From contig JBHLKA010000002.1 of assembly GCA_048887145.1 (NCBI GenBank), positions 1 to 61,176 of the forward strand: DNA of 61,176 bases, written 5' to 3'. The translations under genes were made by a program, and so were the position numbers. The notes under the pieces are model-generated. The model ran no database searches, was not told the DNA's origin, and saw nothing but the letters and a program-made list of their open reading frames with translations. The DNA is from Candidatus Hodarchaeota archaeon (GTDB lineage Archaea > Asgardarchaeota > Lokiarchaeia > Sigyniarchaeales > SOKP01). The first letter of the stretch is position 1, and each line of letters opens with the position of its first letter. This document shows positions 51,581-60,478 of this stretch, piece after piece.

Positions 51581-52402
51581 GTGCTTATGGCTTTTGATAT
51601 CTTCCAAGTAGATTGGATTTTAGTAGATAGTATAATAATTATTATATTGATTTTATTACTTATAGGTGTTAGAATATTTAAATCGGTAAATAGATGGAGA
51701 TTCTCATTATCTAATGAAAGATTATCCAGAATAGTATTTAAAGGCTCTGCCATTAAAACTCAGAATAAAAATATTATAATTAAACAATTTGAATTAACAA
51801 AGTATCCTAATGAAAACAAAAACGTTAATTCTAAACCCACAATAATATTAATTAAATCTAGGAACAGGCGAAAGCTATCTAGCGCTTTAGCTGAAGGTAT
51901 AAGCAGCTATGGAATGGATGTAATTAATTTAACGTGCAAAATCCTTAAAAACCCAAAAGATAATAATAGGATTGAAATTCAAAAAGATATTATAAAATTA
52001 ATCAATTCGTTATATGAATTTTTCAAACAAAATAGAATTAAAATAAGTATAAAGTATTATCTTGTGAACTTTATTCAAACAAATCTTATTTATAGTCCAT
52101 TCATCAACGATATTAACAATAATAAACTTATTTTAATTAATCCGAAACTAAATAGATTTAATAAAACACAAATTCTTGAAATTTTAAATTCAGGTAATTT
52201 AAGATCACGTATGTGTTTAGTTTATAGTGGCAAGGTAAATAGATTTTTAAAAAAACATTCATTGAAAAGATTTATTTTAAAAATTACTTCGAATGATACA
52301 TCCGATTGGAAATTATTTATGTTTAAAAAAGCTTCAAATTCTTTCAAGTATTATGAAACTATACTCTTAGGCACTATAATTAACATTGTAGAAAATAAAT
52401 AA
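51581..52402 (+). CDS. Hypothetical N-terminally membrane-anchored protein
   Basis: 273 aa, GTG start, with a single N-terminal hydrophobic helix (WILVDSIIIIILILLLIGV). No family was recognised. Confidence 0.45.
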   Translation: MLMAFDIFQVDWILVDSIIIIILILLLIGVRIFKSVNRWRFSLSNERLSRIVFKGSAIKTQNKNIIIKQFELTKYPNENKNVNSKPTIILIKSRNRRKLSSALAEGISSYGMDVINLTCKILKNPKDNNRIEIQKDIIKLINSLYEFFKQNRIKISIKYYLVNFIQTNLIYSPFINDINNNKLILINPKLNRFNKTQILEILNSGNLRSRMCLVYSGKVNRFLKKHSLKRFILKITSNDTSDWKLFMFKKASNSFKYYETILLGTIINIVENK

Positions 52403-53144: not shown

Positions 53145-54287
53145 TTGAACGTTTCAAAATCAAAAGCAGGAACATTTTTTATTAAAGGCAGAGGTATCCC
53201 GAAGGGATGCCAGCTGTGTTTAAATGGGACAAAAACGGTTTTATTTATAAATGGATTATGCCAAAATCCTAAACATTGCTATTGGTATTGTCCCATTTCA
53301 AATGAAAGAAAAGGAAAGGATTTTACTTATGCTAATGAAATTAAAATTAAATCTAAGGAAGAATTAATTGATGAGATCAATCTAATGAATGCAAAAGGGA
53401 TGAGTTTAACCGGGGGGGATCCTCTCTTTGGTAATAACTTTGAAAAGACACTAGAATTTATTAAATATGTCAAAATGAGAAAAGGCAAAAAGTTTCACAT
53501 TCATCTCTATACCAATGGTTTAAATTTTAGTGAAGAAATCGCTATTAAGTTGGCTGAAGCTGGTTTAGACGAAATAAGATTTAATCCCCCTAAAGAAAAT
53601 TGGAATGTGATTCAATCCGCATTAAATAAAGGATTTATTGTTGGAGCAGAAGTACCAGTCATTCCCAATAAAAAATATTTGAAGGAACTTGAAGACTTCA
53701 TAATTTATTTAGATAAAATTGGAGCAGAATTCATAAATCTAAATGAATTTGAGTTTTCTTTTCCAAATAGTCAACATCTTAAGGAAAGGGGTTTTATTTT
53801 AAAGAAAGGATCAATTGCCTCTGTAGAAAAGAGTAAAGAAAAAGCTCTTGAATTATTACGAAAAATTCACAATAAAGTTAATCTTCAAATTCACTTCTGC
53901 CCAATAAGAACTAAGGATTATTGGCAGCTAAAAGAAAGATATATAAGACGAGCAAAATCAATTAAAATGCCTTATGAAGATCTATCAGAAGAAGGACTAT
54001 TGCTATTTGCTCAAATTGAAGGTAATGTAAATGCTTTGAAAGAATTTAAAGATTTTTTAATTAATGAGATAAAAATTCCTCAAAAGTATGTAAATTTTAA
54101 CAAAATGCATATAAAAATGCCATTAACTTTTGCTTTAGAAGACAAATTCATAGAATTACTTGAAGAACGTGAATTAAATGGATTTATTGTAGAAATAACT
54201 CCGTTTAGGGAAGAAGAATATTGCCAAACAACAGAAAAAACCCCCATTAAGGTATTTAAAGAAGAGATGAGTATTGATGGAGATTAA
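53145..54287 (+). CDS. Radical-SAM-like protein with a non-canonical Cys cluster
   Basis: 380 aa, TTG start. Contains CQNPKHCYWYCP (C-x5-C-x3-C), MSLTGGDPLF (GGE-like) and a TIM-barrel-like repeat pattern. It starts 5 bp after the NTase gene and overlaps the GNAT gene. Confidence 0.6.
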   Translation: MNVSKSKAGTFFIKGRGIPKGCQLCLNGTKTVLFINGLCQNPKHCYWYCPISNERKGKDFTYANEIKIKSKEELIDEINLMNAKGMSLTGGDPLFGNNFEKTLEFIKYVKMRKGKKFHIHLYTNGLNFSEEIAIKLAEAGLDEIRFNPPKENWNVIQSALNKGFIVGAEVPVIPNKKYLKELEDFIIYLDKIGAEFINLNEFEFSFPNSQHLKERGFILKKGSIASVEKSKEKALELLRKIHNKVNLQIHFCPIRTKDYWQLKERYIRRAKSIKMPYEDLSEEGLLLFAQIEGNVNALKEFKDFLINEIKIPQKYVNFNKMHIKMPLTFALEDKFIELLEERELNGFIVEITPFREEEYCQTTEKTPIKVFKEEMSIDGD

Positions 54288-54723
54288 CAAGGTTAATTTA
54301 GATGATTTGGATACCATTATGAAAATGGAAAAAGAAGCCTTCAAAAGCGATGCTTTTTCGAAAGAAACTATGAAAAAATTGATCTTACAAAGCCCCTTAT
54401 TTTTAAAATTAATTAAAAAGCAAGATAAGCAGAAAATATTAGGCTTCATAATCATTATTCAAGATTACCTTAATAGGCTGAATATTATTAATTTTTTAAT
54501 TAATAAAAAAAATCAAAATAAGGGTTATGGTTCTTATTTGTTAACGAAAACACTAGAAATTGTTAGAAAAATGGATGGAATAAAAAAGATCGTTTTAAAT
54601 GTTAAAACAAAAAATAGAACTGCAATAAAGTTATATGAAGAATTTAATTTTCGCATTGTAAGAGAAATAGAGAATTATTATAGAAATCAAGAAAATGCTT
54701 ATTTAATGGAATTGGATCTCTAA
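54277..54723 (+). CDS. rimI: GNAT N-acetyltransferase (RimI / Nat-type protein N-terminal acetyltransferase)
   Basis: Contains the acetyl-CoA motif QNKGYGSYLL and the C-terminal block AIKLYEEFNFRIVREIENYYRNQENAYLMEL. The ATG at 54277 overlaps the upstream gene end by 11 nt. Confidence 0.8.
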   Translation: MEINKVNLDDLDTIMKMEKEAFKSDAFSKETMKKLILQSPLFLKLIKKQDKQKILGFIIIIQDYLNRLNIINFLINKKNQNKGYGSYLLTKTLEIVRKMDGIKKIVLNVKTKNRTAIKLYEEFNFRIVREIENYYRNQENAYLMELDL

Positions 54724-54849
54724 TTTTTATCGATTTTTAAATATTTTTCTATAAACTTAAACTTATAAATAAAAACTATTATAATATCTGTAAATTAAAT
54801 TTTATAATTTCCTCACAGAAATTATTAACTGTAAAGGAGATAGGGAATA

Positions 54850-54999
54850 TTGCCGATTGATAAAGAATTACAAGAAGAAATTAAGAAAGGGGTTTCTCTC
54901 CAAAAGGTTGATGAGGAAGAAATAAGAAAACGAGAAGAAGAAAAAAAGAAACGCATGGCAGAACTTGAAAAGATTAAAGCAGCCTTAGGAGAAAAATAA
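54850..54999 (+). CDS. Unannotated 49-codon ORF encoding a WH2/beta-thymosin-like peptide
   Basis: Hand translation gives (M)PIDKELQEEIKKGVSLQKVDEEEIRKREEEKKKRMAELEKIKAALGEK. The TTG start follows an in-frame TAG, and AGGAG lies 10 nt upstream (54835-54839). A T-rich tract follows the TAA stop. The pattern L-x3-I-x2-G-x2-L-x-K-V matches the WH2 core spacing. Confidence 0.4.
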   Translation: MPIDKELQEEIKKGVSLQKVDEEEIRKREEEKKKRMAELEKIKAALGEK

Positions 55000-55012: not shown

Positions 55013-55039
55013 TTTTTGTTTCCTTTTCCTTTTTTTTAT
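55013..55039 (+). terminator. Oligo-T tract (putative archaeal intrinsic terminator) after the micro-ORF
   Basis: The sequence tttttgtttccttttccttttttttat begins 14 nt after the stop codon. Archaeal RNAP terminates at oligo-T runs. Confidence 0.25.
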
Positions 55040-55128: not shown

Positions 55129-56202
55129 TTGAAGATTCTTGAGATAGATAATAAAAACCAAGAAATTATTGTTAAAACTGAGAATTTAAATGATTTATGG
55201 ACGCTCTATAATGTTATCTCTAAAAATGATAATGTTTCTACTCGTACCTCTAGAAGAGTGGTATTAAGGGAAGGTACTAAAGGAGACCGAAAACCTATGT
55301 GGTTAAAATTAAACGTAGAATCAGTCTCATTCCATGAATTTTCAAACAGATTACGAATTAAAGGTACTATTATTGAAGGTCCTGAGGATTTCGTTAGCTT
55401 TGGAACGTATCATACGTTTAACATTGAAATAGGTCAGAAATTAGCAATCAAAAAGGAAAAGTGGTTAAAAAATGAAATAAAGAGGTTAAAAGCATCTTCA
55501 AAATTTGAAGTAAATTTTGTTTTGTTAATAATTGCTATTGAAACAGGATTAGCAACAGCATCTCTTATAACTAATTTCAGCCATAATAGAATTGCAACAA
55601 TTAAAAAAACGATTCCTGGAAAAAGATATGAACAAACTTATCGAAATAAGGCATATGAGGAATTTTTTGACGATATCAAAAAAATCATTGATGAGAATAT
55701 CAAAAACATTAATATTAATGTAATAATTTTATGTGGACCAGGAAATACTAAAGATAATTTCATTAAATACCTGAAGGAAAAGAAAAATCCAGAATATCTT
55801 TCAAAAATCAATAGCATCCATGCTAGTTCTGGTACTGAAAGCGCGATTTTAGAGACGCTAAAATCTGCCAAATTAAAAAAATTAAAGAGGAATGTAAAAA
55901 TATTACAAGAAGCAGAAAATATCGAAAAAATTCTAAAACTATTCGCCACTGATGCAGATTTAATTTCAATTGGTGTGAATGAAGTCTCCAAAGCTTCAAA
56001 AATGGGAGCAGTAGAAGAATTATTCTTGGCTGATATTTTGATAAGAGGCACATCAAAAGAAAAAAAACTTCAAATCGAAGAAATTTTAACTAATGTTGAA
56101 AATTCTGGTGGAATATTTCACATTTTAAGTAGTGAGCATCCCACCGGCCAACAAATTATTGATTTGGGGGAAATTGTTGCTATTCTAAGATATAAAATTT
56201 AA
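55129..56202 (+). CDS. pelA: Pelota (Dom34 homolog), mRNA surveillance / ribosome rescue factor
   Basis: 357 aa, TTG start. Contains N-terminal LNDLWTLYNVI, a central eRF1-like domain and C-terminal GAVEELFLAD. Confidence 0.9.
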   Translation: MKILEIDNKNQEIIVKTENLNDLWTLYNVISKNDNVSTRTSRRVVLREGTKGDRKPMWLKLNVESVSFHEFSNRLRIKGTIIEGPEDFVSFGTYHTFNIEIGQKLAIKKEKWLKNEIKRLKASSKFEVNFVLLIIAIETGLATASLITNFSHNRIATIKKTIPGKRYEQTYRNKAYEEFFDDIKKIIDENIKNININVIILCGPGNTKDNFIKYLKEKKNPEYLSKINSIHASSGTESAILETLKSAKLKKLKRNVKILQEAENIEKILKLFATDADLISIGVNEVSKASKMGAVEELFLADILIRGTSKEKKLQIEEILTNVENSGGIFHILSSEHPTGQQIIDLGEIVAILRYKI

Positions 56203-57268: not shown

Positions 57269-57355
57269 TATAAAAAACTAAAAAATATAATTATGTAATA
57301 CCATAAAAAACATACTAGCAATTAATATAAATTATATTTTTATAAATTGATTAAA

Positions 57356-57979
57356 ATGAGTCCTATTATTACACATGAAGATGAGCTTGAATTAGCAAAA
57401 ACCGAAAAAGAGGTAGTAAGTCAGTTAAAGCGATTAGCAAAAGCACAAAATGACCTCATAAATTCTCAAAAAAAATATGCTGAGAACCTTGCTAAAGCAA
57501 ATCTAGTAAGAGAAATGTTAAATAGATCGTTTAGAGACGTCATAAAGCAGATGCAAACCTTACTTAGAGAGAAGAAATCAAATGTTCAAGATGAAGAAGT
57601 AAATTTATATCAAGATATTATTCATAAAAATGATGGCTACATCGAAGTAAACAATAAATATATTGATGCCATAAAAAATCTTACTTTAAAAAAAGAATAT
57701 TTTGTTGAGAAAAAAAATGAATTCGCGGATGCTTTAAGTGATGTAGCAGATAAAAGAAGCTCTGTTATTAAAAAAGCTTTAAGTGTTGAAAAAGTGAAGA
57801 ATAAATTAGTTGAGGGCGAAAAGTTAAAAAAATTAGACGCAGAATTCAATGATTATCAAAGAGATTTTGATATAGCTAGGGATGTACTAATAAAAAAAAT
57901 TCATCAATTTTTAGAGGTAAGAAGCGAGTTAGACGATTTATGGATGATTTTAAAAGATTCAGTATCTAAATCAAGCTAA
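57356..57979 (+). CDS. All-helical ~207-aa coiled-coil protein (BAR-domain-like by size and pattern; unverified)
   Basis: The ORF runs from a TTG at 57347, with an ATG at 57356. The sequence is continuous K/E/L/A-rich heptad-like with no Pro or Gly breaks except at a few predicted turns. The C-terminal block KKLDAEFNDYQRDFDIARDVLIKKIHQFLEVRSELDDLW resembles BAR helix 2-3 patterns. Confidence 0.55.
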   Translation: MSPIITHEDELELAKTEKEVVSQLKRLAKAQNDLINSQKKYAENLAKANLVREMLNRSFRDVIKQMQTLLREKKSNVQDEEVNLYQDIIHKNDGYIEVNNKYIDAIKNLTLKKEYFVEKKNEFADALSDVADKRSSVIKKALSVEKVKNKLVEGEKLKKLDAEFNDYQRDFDIARDVLIKKIHQFLEVRSELDDLWMILKDSVSKSS

Positions 57980-58121: not shown

Positions 58122-58586
58122 ATGGCAGAAGAATTTGCAAATTTCATGCAAGAAACTAGAAGGGCTCCTCTTGAAGAAAAGTTAAATGCATTTGGAGATA
58201 TAGTTGAAAGAATGATGTCAATGATTCTTAGAATCCCTGATTTAGTTGATCAATCGTTATTAACTCTGAACCAAAAAATATCAACTTTGGAATCCCGAAT
58301 TAATACATTGAATAATGATATGTCATCAATTAAATCAACTGGAGGAACTGTAACTCCTATGGTATCCGCACCGACTACTCCTAGCAGCATACCCCCACCA
58401 CCTGGCGGTCCCCCTAGCAATTCATCTTTAGGAAGCGCAAGACCACCCCCTGGCGGTCCTCCCCCGCCTCCCGGCGGTCCACCAGGAGGAACTGGAGCTA
58501 ATCGCCCTGCCAGCCCAATTAGTTTAAGAGGCGCTATAATGAGCGAACTTAAACAACTTTTTAATAAACGCAAAACCCAAGATTAA
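58122..58586 (+). CDS. Coiled-coil / proline-glycine-rich / C-terminal amphipathic-helix protein (WASP/MIM-like layout)
   Basis: 154 aa. Residues 1-70 are helical (LNQKISTLESRINTLNNDMSSIK). Residues 83-129 are P/G-rich, with three PPGGPP units (IPPPPGGPP, RPPPGGPPPPPGGPPGG). The C-terminus is LRGAIMSELKQLFNKRKT. The local GC spike creates a mirror ORF on the opposite strand. Confidence 0.65.
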   Translation: MAEEFANFMQETRRAPLEEKLNAFGDIVERMMSMILRIPDLVDQSLLTLNQKISTLESRINTLNNDMSSIKSTGGTVTPMVSAPTTPSSIPPPPGGPPSNSSLGSARPPPGGPPPPPGGPPGGTGANRPASPISLRGAIMSELKQLFNKRKTQD

Positions 58587-58750: not shown

Positions 58751-60478
58751 TTGGAAAGATCTAGTAGTAAAAAAGCTACAAATGATACTGTTAAAGTTGT
58801 CCATGACCTCAAAAGACAAATTTTAGAGATACCCTCTTTAATCAGAGTAATGAACAACTATTACTATAAAAAAAATCAAGTTCAAAATCAAATTAAACCG
58901 ATACTTCTTAAAAGATTTAAAGAAAATTTAAAGATTTTAAAAGATAAGAGAGATTGGCTTCATTCAATACCAACCGCTTTAGATGCATTAAGCGATGATC
59001 TCATTAGCAGAAAAGATTCATTTAAGTTTCCTGATAGTATCATTTTATTCGAAGCTTGGATGAATTTAGGCTATAATGCTCTTTATCCTAAACTTGTCTT
59101 ACATTATAAGTTTCCAGGATTTTTAAAAGGAGAAAAAACAAGACATTTGTTTCAATTTATCTTTTCTACATCTCGTGGTTTTGGATTTCCCATCTATTTT
59201 GGTCCCAAATTTTATGGATATATACTAACATATGGTAAAGTGCTAGAACCAATTTTAAAATGGAGTCATACAGTATGTCATAGAGCAAACCAAGCAATTT
59301 ACCTAGTAGGTAAAAGGTATAATGTTAAAAGACACCATCCGGGAGAATTTGAATCAATAATAATTTCTGAGTATAAAGATAATCTCTATAAAGGTATTGA
59401 TACGCTTTTACATGGTTATTTCACGAAGGATCCAAAAAATTTAGGAAAATTTTCCTCGTTAAAAGAAGTTCTGCAGAATATAACATTTTCTTACTCAATA
59501 GGAGATCACGCTATGAGCATAGAATTAAAACCTACAAACAAAATTTTGAATGTTAATTTAATTACATATGATAAAATAATGGAAAAATATAATGTGGATT
59601 TTTATACCTACATTAAAGAACTAATATCTTTTAAAAAAATACTGATAAACAAAATTTTGTTCTATAAAGATCAAAAAGCATTCCTTAAAAATCAATTAAG
59701 TAAATTAGATAAGCTAAACTTATTTTTAAGTAGATCTAAAAGATTTAAAGTTTCAGCACTTAAATCTTCTAAAAATATTTTTGAAATAGAGAAACTAAAT
59801 CTTTATATTCATGTTATGGAGAAAATTATGGAATTAATCTGGTCAACACCTCTCTATACTCATACTTTACATGCTTTAACGAATAAGGAAAAGAAGTTTT
59901 TGATTCAAAATAAGAAAAGTAAAGAGAATTTGGAACATATGCCTATAGATTCGATTTTTTTATTATGTTTGAAATATTATGAAGAAAAATATAACTTTAA
60001 TTTTGAAGAAGAATATATACTTAAAAAAGTGGATGATTTAAGGGATTTAATGGCAAAAATGTGGTTATATTTCAAAGAACGTCAATTTAACCTTGCAATA
60101 AAAGAATTGAGTGAACTTTCTAAATTATCGATCGAAGATCAAAATTATGATTCAAAAGTAAATGAAATCTTGAATAAACTTATACCAATATTTTCAATTT
60201 ATGAAATATTTAATAGATCTCTATCTGAATCCGTCTATCCTGAATCTATTCCCCACACAGAAAGATTAGGTGCATATATAGCAAGTTTTTTAACCTCAAG
60301 ATATAATATATTTGGTATTAACTTAATGCATCTCTTTAATAGATTAGCATTTTATAATTGGAGCTATTACCTTTCTAAAAATAAATTAAATAGAAAAAAA
60401 TTTTATAATTTCATTTTGAAACTACCAATCTGGAAAAATATTCCCCAAAATATTAAATTAAAGATTTTAAAAAGTTAA
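58751..60478 (+). CDS. Large hypothetical protein (mostly helical)
   Basis: 575-aa ORF with a TTG start. No family was recognised. It is co-oriented with the two preceding genes. Confidence 0.55.
   Translation: MERSSSKKATNDTVKVVHDLKRQILEIPSLIRVMNNYYYKKNQVQNQIKPILLKRFKENLKILKDKRDWLHSIPTALDALSDDLISRKDSFKFPDSIILFEAWMNLGYNALYPKLVLHYKFPGFLKGEKTRHLFQFIFSTSRGFGFPIYFGPKFYGYILTYGKVLEPILKWSHTVCHRANQAIYLVGKRYNVKRHHPGEFESIIISEYKDNLYKGIDTLLHGYFTKDPKNLGKFSSLKEVLQNITFSYSIGDHAMSIELKPTNKILNVNLITYDKIMEKYNVDFYTYIKELISFKKILINKILFYKDQKAFLKNQLSKLDKLNLFLSRSKRFKVSALKSSKNIFEIEKLNLYIHVMEKIMELIWSTPLYTHTLHALTNKEKKFLIQNKKSKENLEHMPIDSIFLLCLKYYEEKYNFNFEEEYILKKVDDLRDLMAKMWLYFKERQFNLAIKELSELSKLSIEDQNYDSKVNEILNKLIPIFSIYEIFNRSLSESVYPESIPHTERLGAYIASFLTSRYNIFGINLMHLFNRLAFYNWSYYLSKNKLNRKKFYNFILKLPIWKNIPQNIKLKILKS

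Follow-up and report, generated by a model that had tools for sequence, protein, structure and literature searches.

Regulated actin dynamics is a hallmark common to eukaryotes and Asgard archaea, and the published set of Asgard regulators consists essentially of profilins and gelsolin/cofilin-like proteins. The most widespread G-actin-binding element of eukaryotes is the WASP homology 2 (WH2) domain, which forms the V of VCA in Arp2/3 activators and the core of thymosins and tandem nucleators. The subject here is a 49-codon gene in an intergenic spacer of an Asgard contig (JBHLKA010000002.1, assembly GCA_048887145.1), of which positions 1 to 61,176 were analysed (hereafter, the window). As judged from sequence comparison and structure prediction, it is reasonably probable that this open reading frame (ORF) encodes a WH2-type binder of Lokiactin monomers, that is, a small cytosolic regulator whose module also occurs in profilin-fused and tandem proteins.

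The WH2 domain is defined as a short N-terminal amphipathic helix of some two to three turns, with conserved hydrophobic residues, that leads into an extended LKKT/V segment (PMC5792643, PMC8102491), and has been described across eukaryotes, apart from the WH2-like helix of chlamydial Tarp (PMC5792643). In trypanosomatids, a WH2-like helical insertion of profilin contributes to actin-monomer binding (PMC10907219). Asgard two-domain gelsolins carry a four-residue "WH2-like" LKKT-type motif in the linker between D1 and D2 (PMC7444086, PMC9433394, 10.1101/2025.11.30.690169), and this stretch has been seen crystallographically on actin subdomain 1, contacting Asp25 (PMC9433394). Profilins and gelsolins are the only Asgard actin regulators listed in a review of 2024 and in a preprint of December 2025, and no standalone Asgard WH2 protein was found in the freely searchable full text, where the gelsolin-linker "WH2-like LKKT" is the only entry. 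A preliminary description of this DNA had taken WH2-type regulators to be undescribed in Asgard archaea, which holds for a standalone protein and not for the four-residue gelsolin motif, already published.

The small gene is conserved as a protein-coding unit. A search of 5.8 billion proteins returned 111 homologues of 42-51 aa and 67-100% identity, annotated as "hypothetical"; a broader profile raised the count to 375, all unnamed, and no NCBIfam or Pfam family covers the small protein (NCBIfam has none for any form). For a survey of the locus, 80 species-representative Asgard loci were collected with the close-family alignment, so that the figures describe the close, Loki-type subfamily only. 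The reading frame is open in all 80, and 77 hold a complete ORF of 48-53 aa that starts with ATG (40), GTG (28) or TTG (9). Across these 77 loci, a Shine-Dalgarno (SD)-like motif with the consensus AAAAGGTGTT lies between -18 and -4 in 57, a run of at least five T follows within 50 nucleotides (nt) in 74, and a conservation bump is seen about 70-80 nt 5' of the start; ATTATAA, which resembles the tttataa of the window, stands at the equivalent place in locus L001. The small gene is directly upstream of pelota in 76 of the 77, with the order GNAT acetyltransferase, small ORF, pelota kept in 72.

Median identity to the window is 81% for the small protein, 67% for pelota and 52% for the GNAT, which makes the small protein the best conserved of the block, and the ratio of nonsynonymous to synonymous substitution (dN/dS; Nei-Gojobori, comparisons with unsaturated dS) is 0.07-0.19, changes being concentrated at third codon positions. 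In the distant lineages L011 and L012 the gene lies away from pelota; because the linkage is gone outside Loki-type genomes, it is regarded as clade-level synteny rather than as functional coupling. All family members that bear a taxon name are Asgard, apart from one metagenome-assembled genome (MAG) labelled "Nanopelagicaceae bacterium" (L082), which has a close homologue with 75% amino-acid identity and is probably mis-binned. The preliminary description had proposed to look for a conserved syntenic ORF under purifying selection, a check that came out strongly positive, and the small ORF is, with near certainty, a real gene.

The residues under selection are those of a WH2 core. Among 44 representative family sequences, I11, K12, G14, L17, K19, R28 and R35 are invariant, and E6, L7, K13, V15, V20, E29-K34, E38, L39, K43 and L46 are conserved in at least 90%; L7, I11, K12, G14, L17, K19 and V20 are the WH2 core positions L-x3-I-x2-G-x2-L-x-K-V. 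The pattern [LIVMF]x3[ILVMF]x2Gx2LxK[VTIPLA] is present in 194 of 213 small family proteins. The exact WH2 spacing to which the preliminary description pointed is indeed there and is conserved at its core positions; the bare pattern taken by itself does not exceed chance, and a strict WH2-core regular expression also matches an unrelated 210-aa ORF of the same window (57347-57979). This second match was dismissed as a WH2 element and put down to chance, its signature residues being unconserved. For the small protein, the motif is regarded as going beyond chance because selection acts on exactly the WH2 core residues. The motif reads LQKV in the window protein and LKKV in P0128, P0129, P0137, P0141, P0167 and P0168, and the position of the second Leu of the canonical LL is polar in standalone proteins and hydrophobic in tandem proteins.

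Structure prediction with AlphaFold2 (AF2) and the family alignment gave a model with a predicted local distance difference test (pLDDT) score of 83, consisting of a helix at residues 5-12, a non-helical segment at 13-21 (which includes GVSLQKV) and a second helix at 22-48. The succession of helix 5-12 and extended GVSLQKV agrees with the published WH2 definition (PMC5792643, PMC8102491). For residues 3-13 the hydrophobic moment comes to 0.60, compared with 0.48-0.80 for the WH2 helices of WAVE2, N-WASP and MIM, and I3, L7 and I11 lie on one helix face, within an 80-degree arc. The short N-terminal amphipathic helix expected of a WH2 unit is thus found (AF2 helix, hydrophobic moment, L7/I11), as is the extended LKKT/LKKV-type segment at fixed spacing (G14, L17 and K19 invariant, V20 in at least 90%). 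Conservation of the charged second helix extends to the broad family and to the fusion proteins, the residues invariant in the broad family being L17, R35 and E38.

Searches free of any WH2 assumption converge on WH2 proteins. Against 177,635 PDB sequences, the family profile placed the N-WASP tandem WH2 chain 3m3n_W at rank 2 (E=0.0017) and the MIM WH2 chain 2d1k_C at rank 4 (E=0.43), with alignments ungapped over the core (GIQLKKV of N-WASP, GVKLKKT of MIM); both were crystallised with actin. The top match, the de novo designed TIM barrel 7osv, was discarded as chance, since it sums four weak "LQEALKKG" repeats without LxKV. Against 1.84 billion representative proteins, the same profile retrieved 60 at E<=1e-3, and among the sequences examined of those 60 the sole non-family matches are the WH2 repeat proteins P0156, P0161 and P0170 (E=2.7e-5 to 8.3e-4), which align to query residues 4-22 and not to the K/E-rich tail. 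P0170 consists of a poly-Pro segment followed by three copies of NPLMDAIKKGVSLKRA. On Pfam WH2 (PF02205; gathering threshold 23.1 bits), P0170 reaches 45.8 bits and P0161 25.8 bits, and the family profile retrieved these Pfam-certified WH2 repeat proteins at library-wide E-values of 2.5e-4 to 8.3e-4. The P0161 cluster was located on a gene-sparse Tara Oceans contig, and both repeat proteins are probably eukaryotic.

Comparison from the side of known WH2 domains gave the same direction. P0141, a distant full-module member, scores 23.7 bits on Pfam WH2, above the threshold, and P0128, P0167 and P0168 match it weakly (E=0.007-0.09), WH2 being the best match for two of the three. The Pfam WH2 and Thymosin searches proposed in the preliminary description had a mixed outcome, positive for WH2 in this distant member and negative for Thymosin and for the window protein; by profile score, formal Pfam WH2 membership applies to P0141 and not to the small protein itself. 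On a hidden Markov model (HMM) built from eleven eukaryotic WH2 sequences, the window protein beats 99.7% of its shuffles (p=0.003), and P0141, P0137, P0167, P0131 and P0128 beat all 1000 of theirs (<0.001). Alignment of the broad family with nine canonical WH2 domains by hhalign gave P=1.2e-4 and a probability of 55% over 19 ungapped columns. Reciprocal profile similarity beyond chance is thus seen in the PDB, in the 1.84 billion-protein library, with hhalign and against shuffles. Taken together with the conserved core residues, these searches support the WH2-type reading with which the ORF had originally been described, and a specific WH2-type sequence relationship, whether by homology or by convergence, appears quite likely.

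The module also occurs in larger proteins, where it is tied to actin independently because it is fused to Asgard profilin domains. An N-terminal domain is followed by four modules in P0132, two in P0133 and one in P0162; P0132 and its cluster-mate P0175 come from Promethearchaeota MAGs, and P0133 and P0162 from metagenome contigs without a taxon name. In P0132 and P0133 this domain scores 19.1 and 21.6 bits on Pfam Profilin (PF00235) over nearly its full length, just under the 25-bit cut-off, and among PDB sequences it finds the profilins of Odin, Loki (Loki-1 and Loki-2) and Thor, with E-values from 6e-9 up to 1e-4. The top five Foldseek matches of its AF2 model are Asgard profilins (profilin-actin complexes, including 5zza, 5zzb and 5yee), with template modelling (TM) scores up to 0.81. 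On these sequence and model comparisons, the fusion partner in P0132 and P0133 is a profilin, and the N-terminal domain of P0162 is homologous to it by alignment. The module residues invariant in the profilin fusions are F at the I11 position, then L-E-K-P-D, R, E, R and E-L, and in one MAG a standalone copy and a fusion are encoded together. In the AF2 model of P0133 the module region has a pLDDT below 50. All three proteins end in a conserved C-terminal domain of about 55 aa, predicted as strand-strand-helix (…ITIKAKFxTDYIYDDFQLLxxKxxIExL…) and without a Pfam match (P0132 at locus L010 6001-7164); the same domain is found in P0149 as module plus domain, without profilin.

Tandem arrays form a second class of architectures. 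P0119, a Promethearchaeota protein of 497 aa in a thermosome/ribosomal-protein context (locus L094 6001-7494), holds nine modules, one every ~40-50 aa, several of which carry the canonical LL/LM hydrophobic doublet together with LKKI, for example TLLGEITSETPRLKKID; P0148 and P0157 hold four tandem modules each. By their layout, all three are candidate multi-actin binders or nucleators. A leucine-rich repeat (LRR) domain stands upstream of the module in P0152, P0158 and P0169, and in P0152, P0158, P0164, P0169 and P0151, all on short contigs without an assignable taxon, the module is placed after the LRR and before Zn-ribbon/RING-like or ribbon-helix-helix (RHH) segments (P0158 at locus L096). 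The combination of LRR and WH2 is a known eukaryotic actin-nucleator architecture (leiomodin). An actin-regulatory multidomain or tandem context, as is typical of WH2 domains, is thus found in the profilin, four- to nine-fold tandem and LRR layouts.

Several observations weigh against a WH2-type actin binder and are set together here. The window protein has no Pfam WH2 or Thymosin match at E<=10, its best, sub-threshold Pfam matches being DUF7067 and DUF3006; Pfam WH2 is touched by one of 44 close relatives (E=0.059), and P0141, which does pass the threshold, is represented by two sequences on contigs of less than 1 kb, with a neighbour gene without Pfam match and no assignable taxon. On the eukaryote-only HMM the window protein reaches 5.6 bits, and the canonical WH2 set behind that model was entered by hand, its N-WASP and MIM cores agreeing with the PDB alignments. 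The similarity covers about 19 residues, and all scores are modest. Standalone members have a polar residue (Q, K or E) in place of the second Leu of the canonical doublet, and usually Q where LKKV has its first basic residue, a position that varies in bona fide WH2 domains too (LNKT in WASP). A subgroup (P0140, P0144, P0147 and P0160) is without the Lx3I helix pattern and obtains no score on the WH2 HMM, and the LRR and RHH fusions have a longer linker from helix to Gly (…ELKEAIPSHKNGSYLEKPD…). A Pfam scan of the window found no actin genes in the housekeeping neighbourhood. Foldseek of the 49-aa model against the PDB returned zero matches, a search that is uninformative for a small helix-loop-helix. 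Finally, the charged C-terminal helix, which canonical WH2 domains lack, equals the WH2 part in conservation, so that the main partner of the module could be other than actin.

Such points would also fit a conserved Asgard module that resembles WH2 by convergence or coincidence, serving as a general adaptor or single-alpha-helix spacer for another partner (profilin itself, a GTPase or LRR-associated complex, or its own kind by self-association via the amphipathic C-terminal stretch M36/L39/I42/L46), an explanation that we consider unlikely and still weighty. It draws on the conserved C-terminal helix and the aberrant subgroup, on the joining of the module to LRR, RHH and Zn-ribbon segments that are not obviously cytoskeletal, on the fact that close members score higher with DUF3006 and DUF7067 than with Pfam WH2, and on the chance match of the bare pattern elsewhere in the window. 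The two DUF families, the commonest sub-threshold matches of close members, stayed far below their cut-offs and were rejected as compositional or short-helix noise. Chance, however, leaves it unexplained that the invariant residues are WH2 contact positions, that, beyond the family itself, unbiased profile searches bring up WH2 proteins only, and that the recurrent fusion partner of clear function is profilin, an actin-monomer binder; LRR plus WH2 is itself the nucleator layout of leiomodin. The position directly 5' of pelota in 76 of 77 loci could suggest instead a translation- or ribosome-associated mini-protein coupled to pelota, such as a TMA7-like K/E-rich factor, and there are weak PDB matches to aEF-1beta (E=0.24) and uL30, besides a K/E-rich tail that is superficially like eukaryotic TMA7. 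This is improbable: hhalign against TMA7 gave a probability of 1.3% (P=0.039) over 10 K/E columns, the 44 close and 10 distant members have no Pfam TMA7 match, nothing TMA7-like is among the 60 representatives, the gene comes with an SD, a promoter-like element and a putative terminator of its own and lies away from pelota in L011 and L012, and its product has no net positive charge (14 K+R against 14 D+E), unlike ribosomal proteins. TMA7 and translation factors were accordingly ruled out as assignments.

A small nucleic-acid-binding or chromatin protein is, if anything, slightly less probable still. One cluster member carries the automatic Joint Genome Institute (JGI) label "DNA-binding protein H-NS", RHH (CopG-like) segments are fused to the module in P0151, P0158 and P0169, and there is a weak Alba match (E=0.75); the labels are inconsistent, however, other relatives being called "multidrug resistance efflux pump", the net charge is zero, no known DNA-binding fold was detected by Pfam, AF2 or Foldseek, and any DNA binding by the RHH fusions would come from their RHH segments. 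That the ORF is spurious, or part of a non-coding RNA, in an AT-rich spacer can practically be discounted. It is short, compositionally simple and opened by TTG in a genome of ~29% GC, and an antisense ORF of 43 aa overlaps it, as a by-product of the K/E codons. Yet the dN/dS values with third-position variation in the forward frame, the open frame at every surveyed locus, an amino-acid identity higher than that of pelota and the lack of any Rfam family match in the spacer all contradict this; as far as computation allows, the conservation data have already refuted it.

If the small protein is a WH2-type binder of Lokiactin monomers, the following mechanism can be proposed. Briefly, residues 3-13 would fold into an amphipathic helix on binding, lodged in the cleft that separates subdomains 1 and 3 on the barbed face of Lokiactin, G14 would break this helix, and the extended GVSLQKV, with L17 and K19, would run up subdomain 1 like the LKKT/V of eukaryotic WH2 domains. 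Further along the monomer or filament, the charged helix 22-48 may provide a second contact or act as a spacer. The receptor site is plausibly present: on rabbit actin, this cleft is occupied by Asgard gelsolin D1 and by Asgard profilin, and Loki actins are reported to conserve the cleft as well as Asp25, which LKKT-type segments contact (PMC9433394; PMC5792643). As a free 49-aa protein, the regulator would buffer or deliver G-actin in the manner of beta-thymosin or ciboulot, and the profilin-fused and four- to nine-fold tandem forms might act as monomer-delivery, nucleation or filament-lining factors. From sequence comparison, then, we infer actin binding, its geometry and an activity that may be either sequestering or assembly-promoting.

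The coordinates of the gene and its elements are collected in Table 1. Position, TTG start, length of 49 aa and the 405-nt gap between a rimI-type GNAT and pelota are all as first described, and the upstream in-frame TAG, the AGGAG, the tttataa and the T runs after the stop were likewise located. The in-frame TAG (54841-54843) lies two codons 5' of the start. Both flanking genes, a GNAT acetyltransferase at 54274-54723 and pelota at 55129-56202, are supported by Pfam. The space between them yielded no bacterial promoter or terminator when scanned, a bacterial-type hairpin terminator included.

Table 1. The small gene, its flanking signals and the segments of its product (window positions)
Feature	Position	Strand	Remarks
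Small WH2-like protein gene, 49 codons	54850-54999	+	TTG start, TAA stop; product MPIDKELQEEIKKGVSLQKVDEEEIRKREEEKKKRMAELEKIKAALGEK
SD-like AGGAG	54835-54839	+	10 nt 5' of the TTG start
TATA-box-like tttataa, putative archaeal promoter element of its own transcription unit	54801-54807	+	43-49 nt 5' of the start; inferred
T-rich tract (T5 ... T8), putative archaeal oligo-T terminator	55013-55037	+	3' of the stop codon
Residues 3-13 (IDKELQEEIKK), amphipathic helix, proposed actin-cleft binder	54856-54888	+	AF2 helix 5-12; hydrophobic moment 0.60; L7/I11 conservation
Residues 14-21 (GVSLQKVD), Gly linker and LKKV-type motif (LQKV = 54898-54909)	54889-54912	+	Non-helical, extended in AF2
Residues 22-48 (EEEIRKREEEKKKRMAELEKIKAALGE), long highly charged helix, family-specific extension	54913-54993	+	AF2 pLDDT 88-92

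Other neighbours in the window, by Pfam, are CutA1, a nucleotidyltransferase, two radical-SAM proteins, RtcB, Cdc6, PAN, Cbf5 and Elf1. A RimI-like GNAT corresponding to that of the window (54274-54723, +) also adjoins the distant family member P0127 in locus L011 (6239-6712, -), in opposite orientation and in a lineage that has lost the pelota/radical-SAM synteny. Identity between the two GNATs is 36% (E=8e-25), the window GNAT being the sole match in the window. This adjacency hints at a functional link, which might for example be N-terminal acetylation of the small protein. The ORF at 57347-57979 (+), which holds the chance WH2-pattern match (VKNKLVEGEKLKKL), encodes a conserved all-helical protein of 210 aa without a Pfam family, syntenic in at least 64 of the collected loci, with a very conserved N-terminus (MSPIITHEDELELAK). 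Three further ORFs on the same strand, 51581-52402, 58122-58586 and 58751-60478 (273, 154 and 575 aa), are without Pfam match and have genes of similar length in the same positions of the related Asgard loci examined.

The window shares 91-94% nucleotide identity with several Asgard (Promethearchaeota-type) MAGs. Both the window and Promethearchaeota-labelled MAGs share 94% nucleotide identity with locus L016, whose label is "Candidatus Odinarchaeota"; since the phylum labels of submitters are unreliable, the taxon claim is kept to "Asgard". The gene falls below 60 aa, 37 of the 77 orthologues start with GTG or TTG, and the tryptic peptides expected from the sequence are all of 7 residues or less, so that ORF-length filters and shotgun proteomics readily overlook the gene. 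The published Lokiactin co-immunoprecipitation, like other standard shotgun proteomics, would probably miss the small protein.

Were the WH2-type reading correct, a conserved and probably abundant free protein would add a third class to the Asgard actin regulators, and the family would offer candidates for the missing Asgard monomer-buffering and nucleation activities. The origin of WH2-based actin control would in that case become directly testable with a synthetic peptide of 49 residues. WH2-class actin regulation may, on such sequence relationships, predate eukaryotes. A tentative and rather doubtful extension is that the WH2 module arose in Asgards before eukaryogenesis, that these archaea already have a WH2 toolkit of a free thymosin-like buffer, profilin-WH2 delivery proteins, LRR-WH2 proteins and four- to nine-fold tandem nucleators or filament rulers, and that this archaeal module gave rise to the eukaryotic WH2 proteins (WASP/WAVE/WIP, thymosins, Spire/Cobl-type nucleators).

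Compared with the Asgard gelsolin linker, the small protein occurs in the same organisms and shares an L-basic-basic-V/T stretch; the linker motif, however, consists of four residues inside a gelsolin, without amphipathic helix, whereas the small protein holds the WH2 core in full and is free-standing. Trypanosomatid profilin (PMC10907219) likewise combines profilin and a WH2-like helix in one polypeptide, but there the helix is an insertion of ~20 aa within the profilin fold and lacks LKKT, in contrast to the one to four complete modules that follow a complete profilin in the Asgard proteins. With the beta-thymosins (PF01290, thymosin beta-4/beta-10), ciboulot and actobindin, the small protein agrees in a length of ~45-50 aa and in a layout of one WH2-type element followed by a K/E-rich C-terminal helix, multi-repeat relatives exist as for ciboulot and tetrathymosin, and buffering of G-actin would be a plausible role for the Asgard protein as well. 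The beta-thymosin likeness noted in the preliminary description is one of size (48-53 aa in the family) and of the helix/extended/helix plan, as architecture and not as homology. Membership of the thymosin family does not follow, since the I-to-L spacing is 6 as in WH2 domains rather than 8, LKKTET is lacking, the C-terminal helix is much longer and starts directly after the motif, and Pfam Thymosin finds no match at E<=10 in the window protein, the 44 close or the 10 distant members.

The four to nine tandem modules of P0119, P0148 and P0157 are reminiscent of Spire, Cordon-bleu and VopL/VopF, and the LRR plus module layout of P0152, P0158 and P0169 of leiomodin. The Asgard repeats differ from those nucleators in recurring every ~40-50 aa with the charged helix included, and in being without KIND, FH2 or tropomodulin elements. 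The WH2 domain itself, as found in WASP/N-WASP, WAVE, WIP/verprolin and MIM, shares with the Asgard module a unit of ~20 residues built as helix, Gly and LxKV/T that aligns without gaps (LqeeIKKGVsLqKv against LLDQIRQGIQLKKV), conservation at the same positions, tandem arrays and proximity to profilin-related function. Unlike it, the Asgard module is archaeal, has in the standalone family a polar second Leu position and usually Gln for the first basic residue of LKKV, and is always followed by a conserved charged helix of 27 residues (REEEKKKRxEELxKxK). It is the combination of a WH2-type module and a further conserved helix, occurring in archaea, that would be new.

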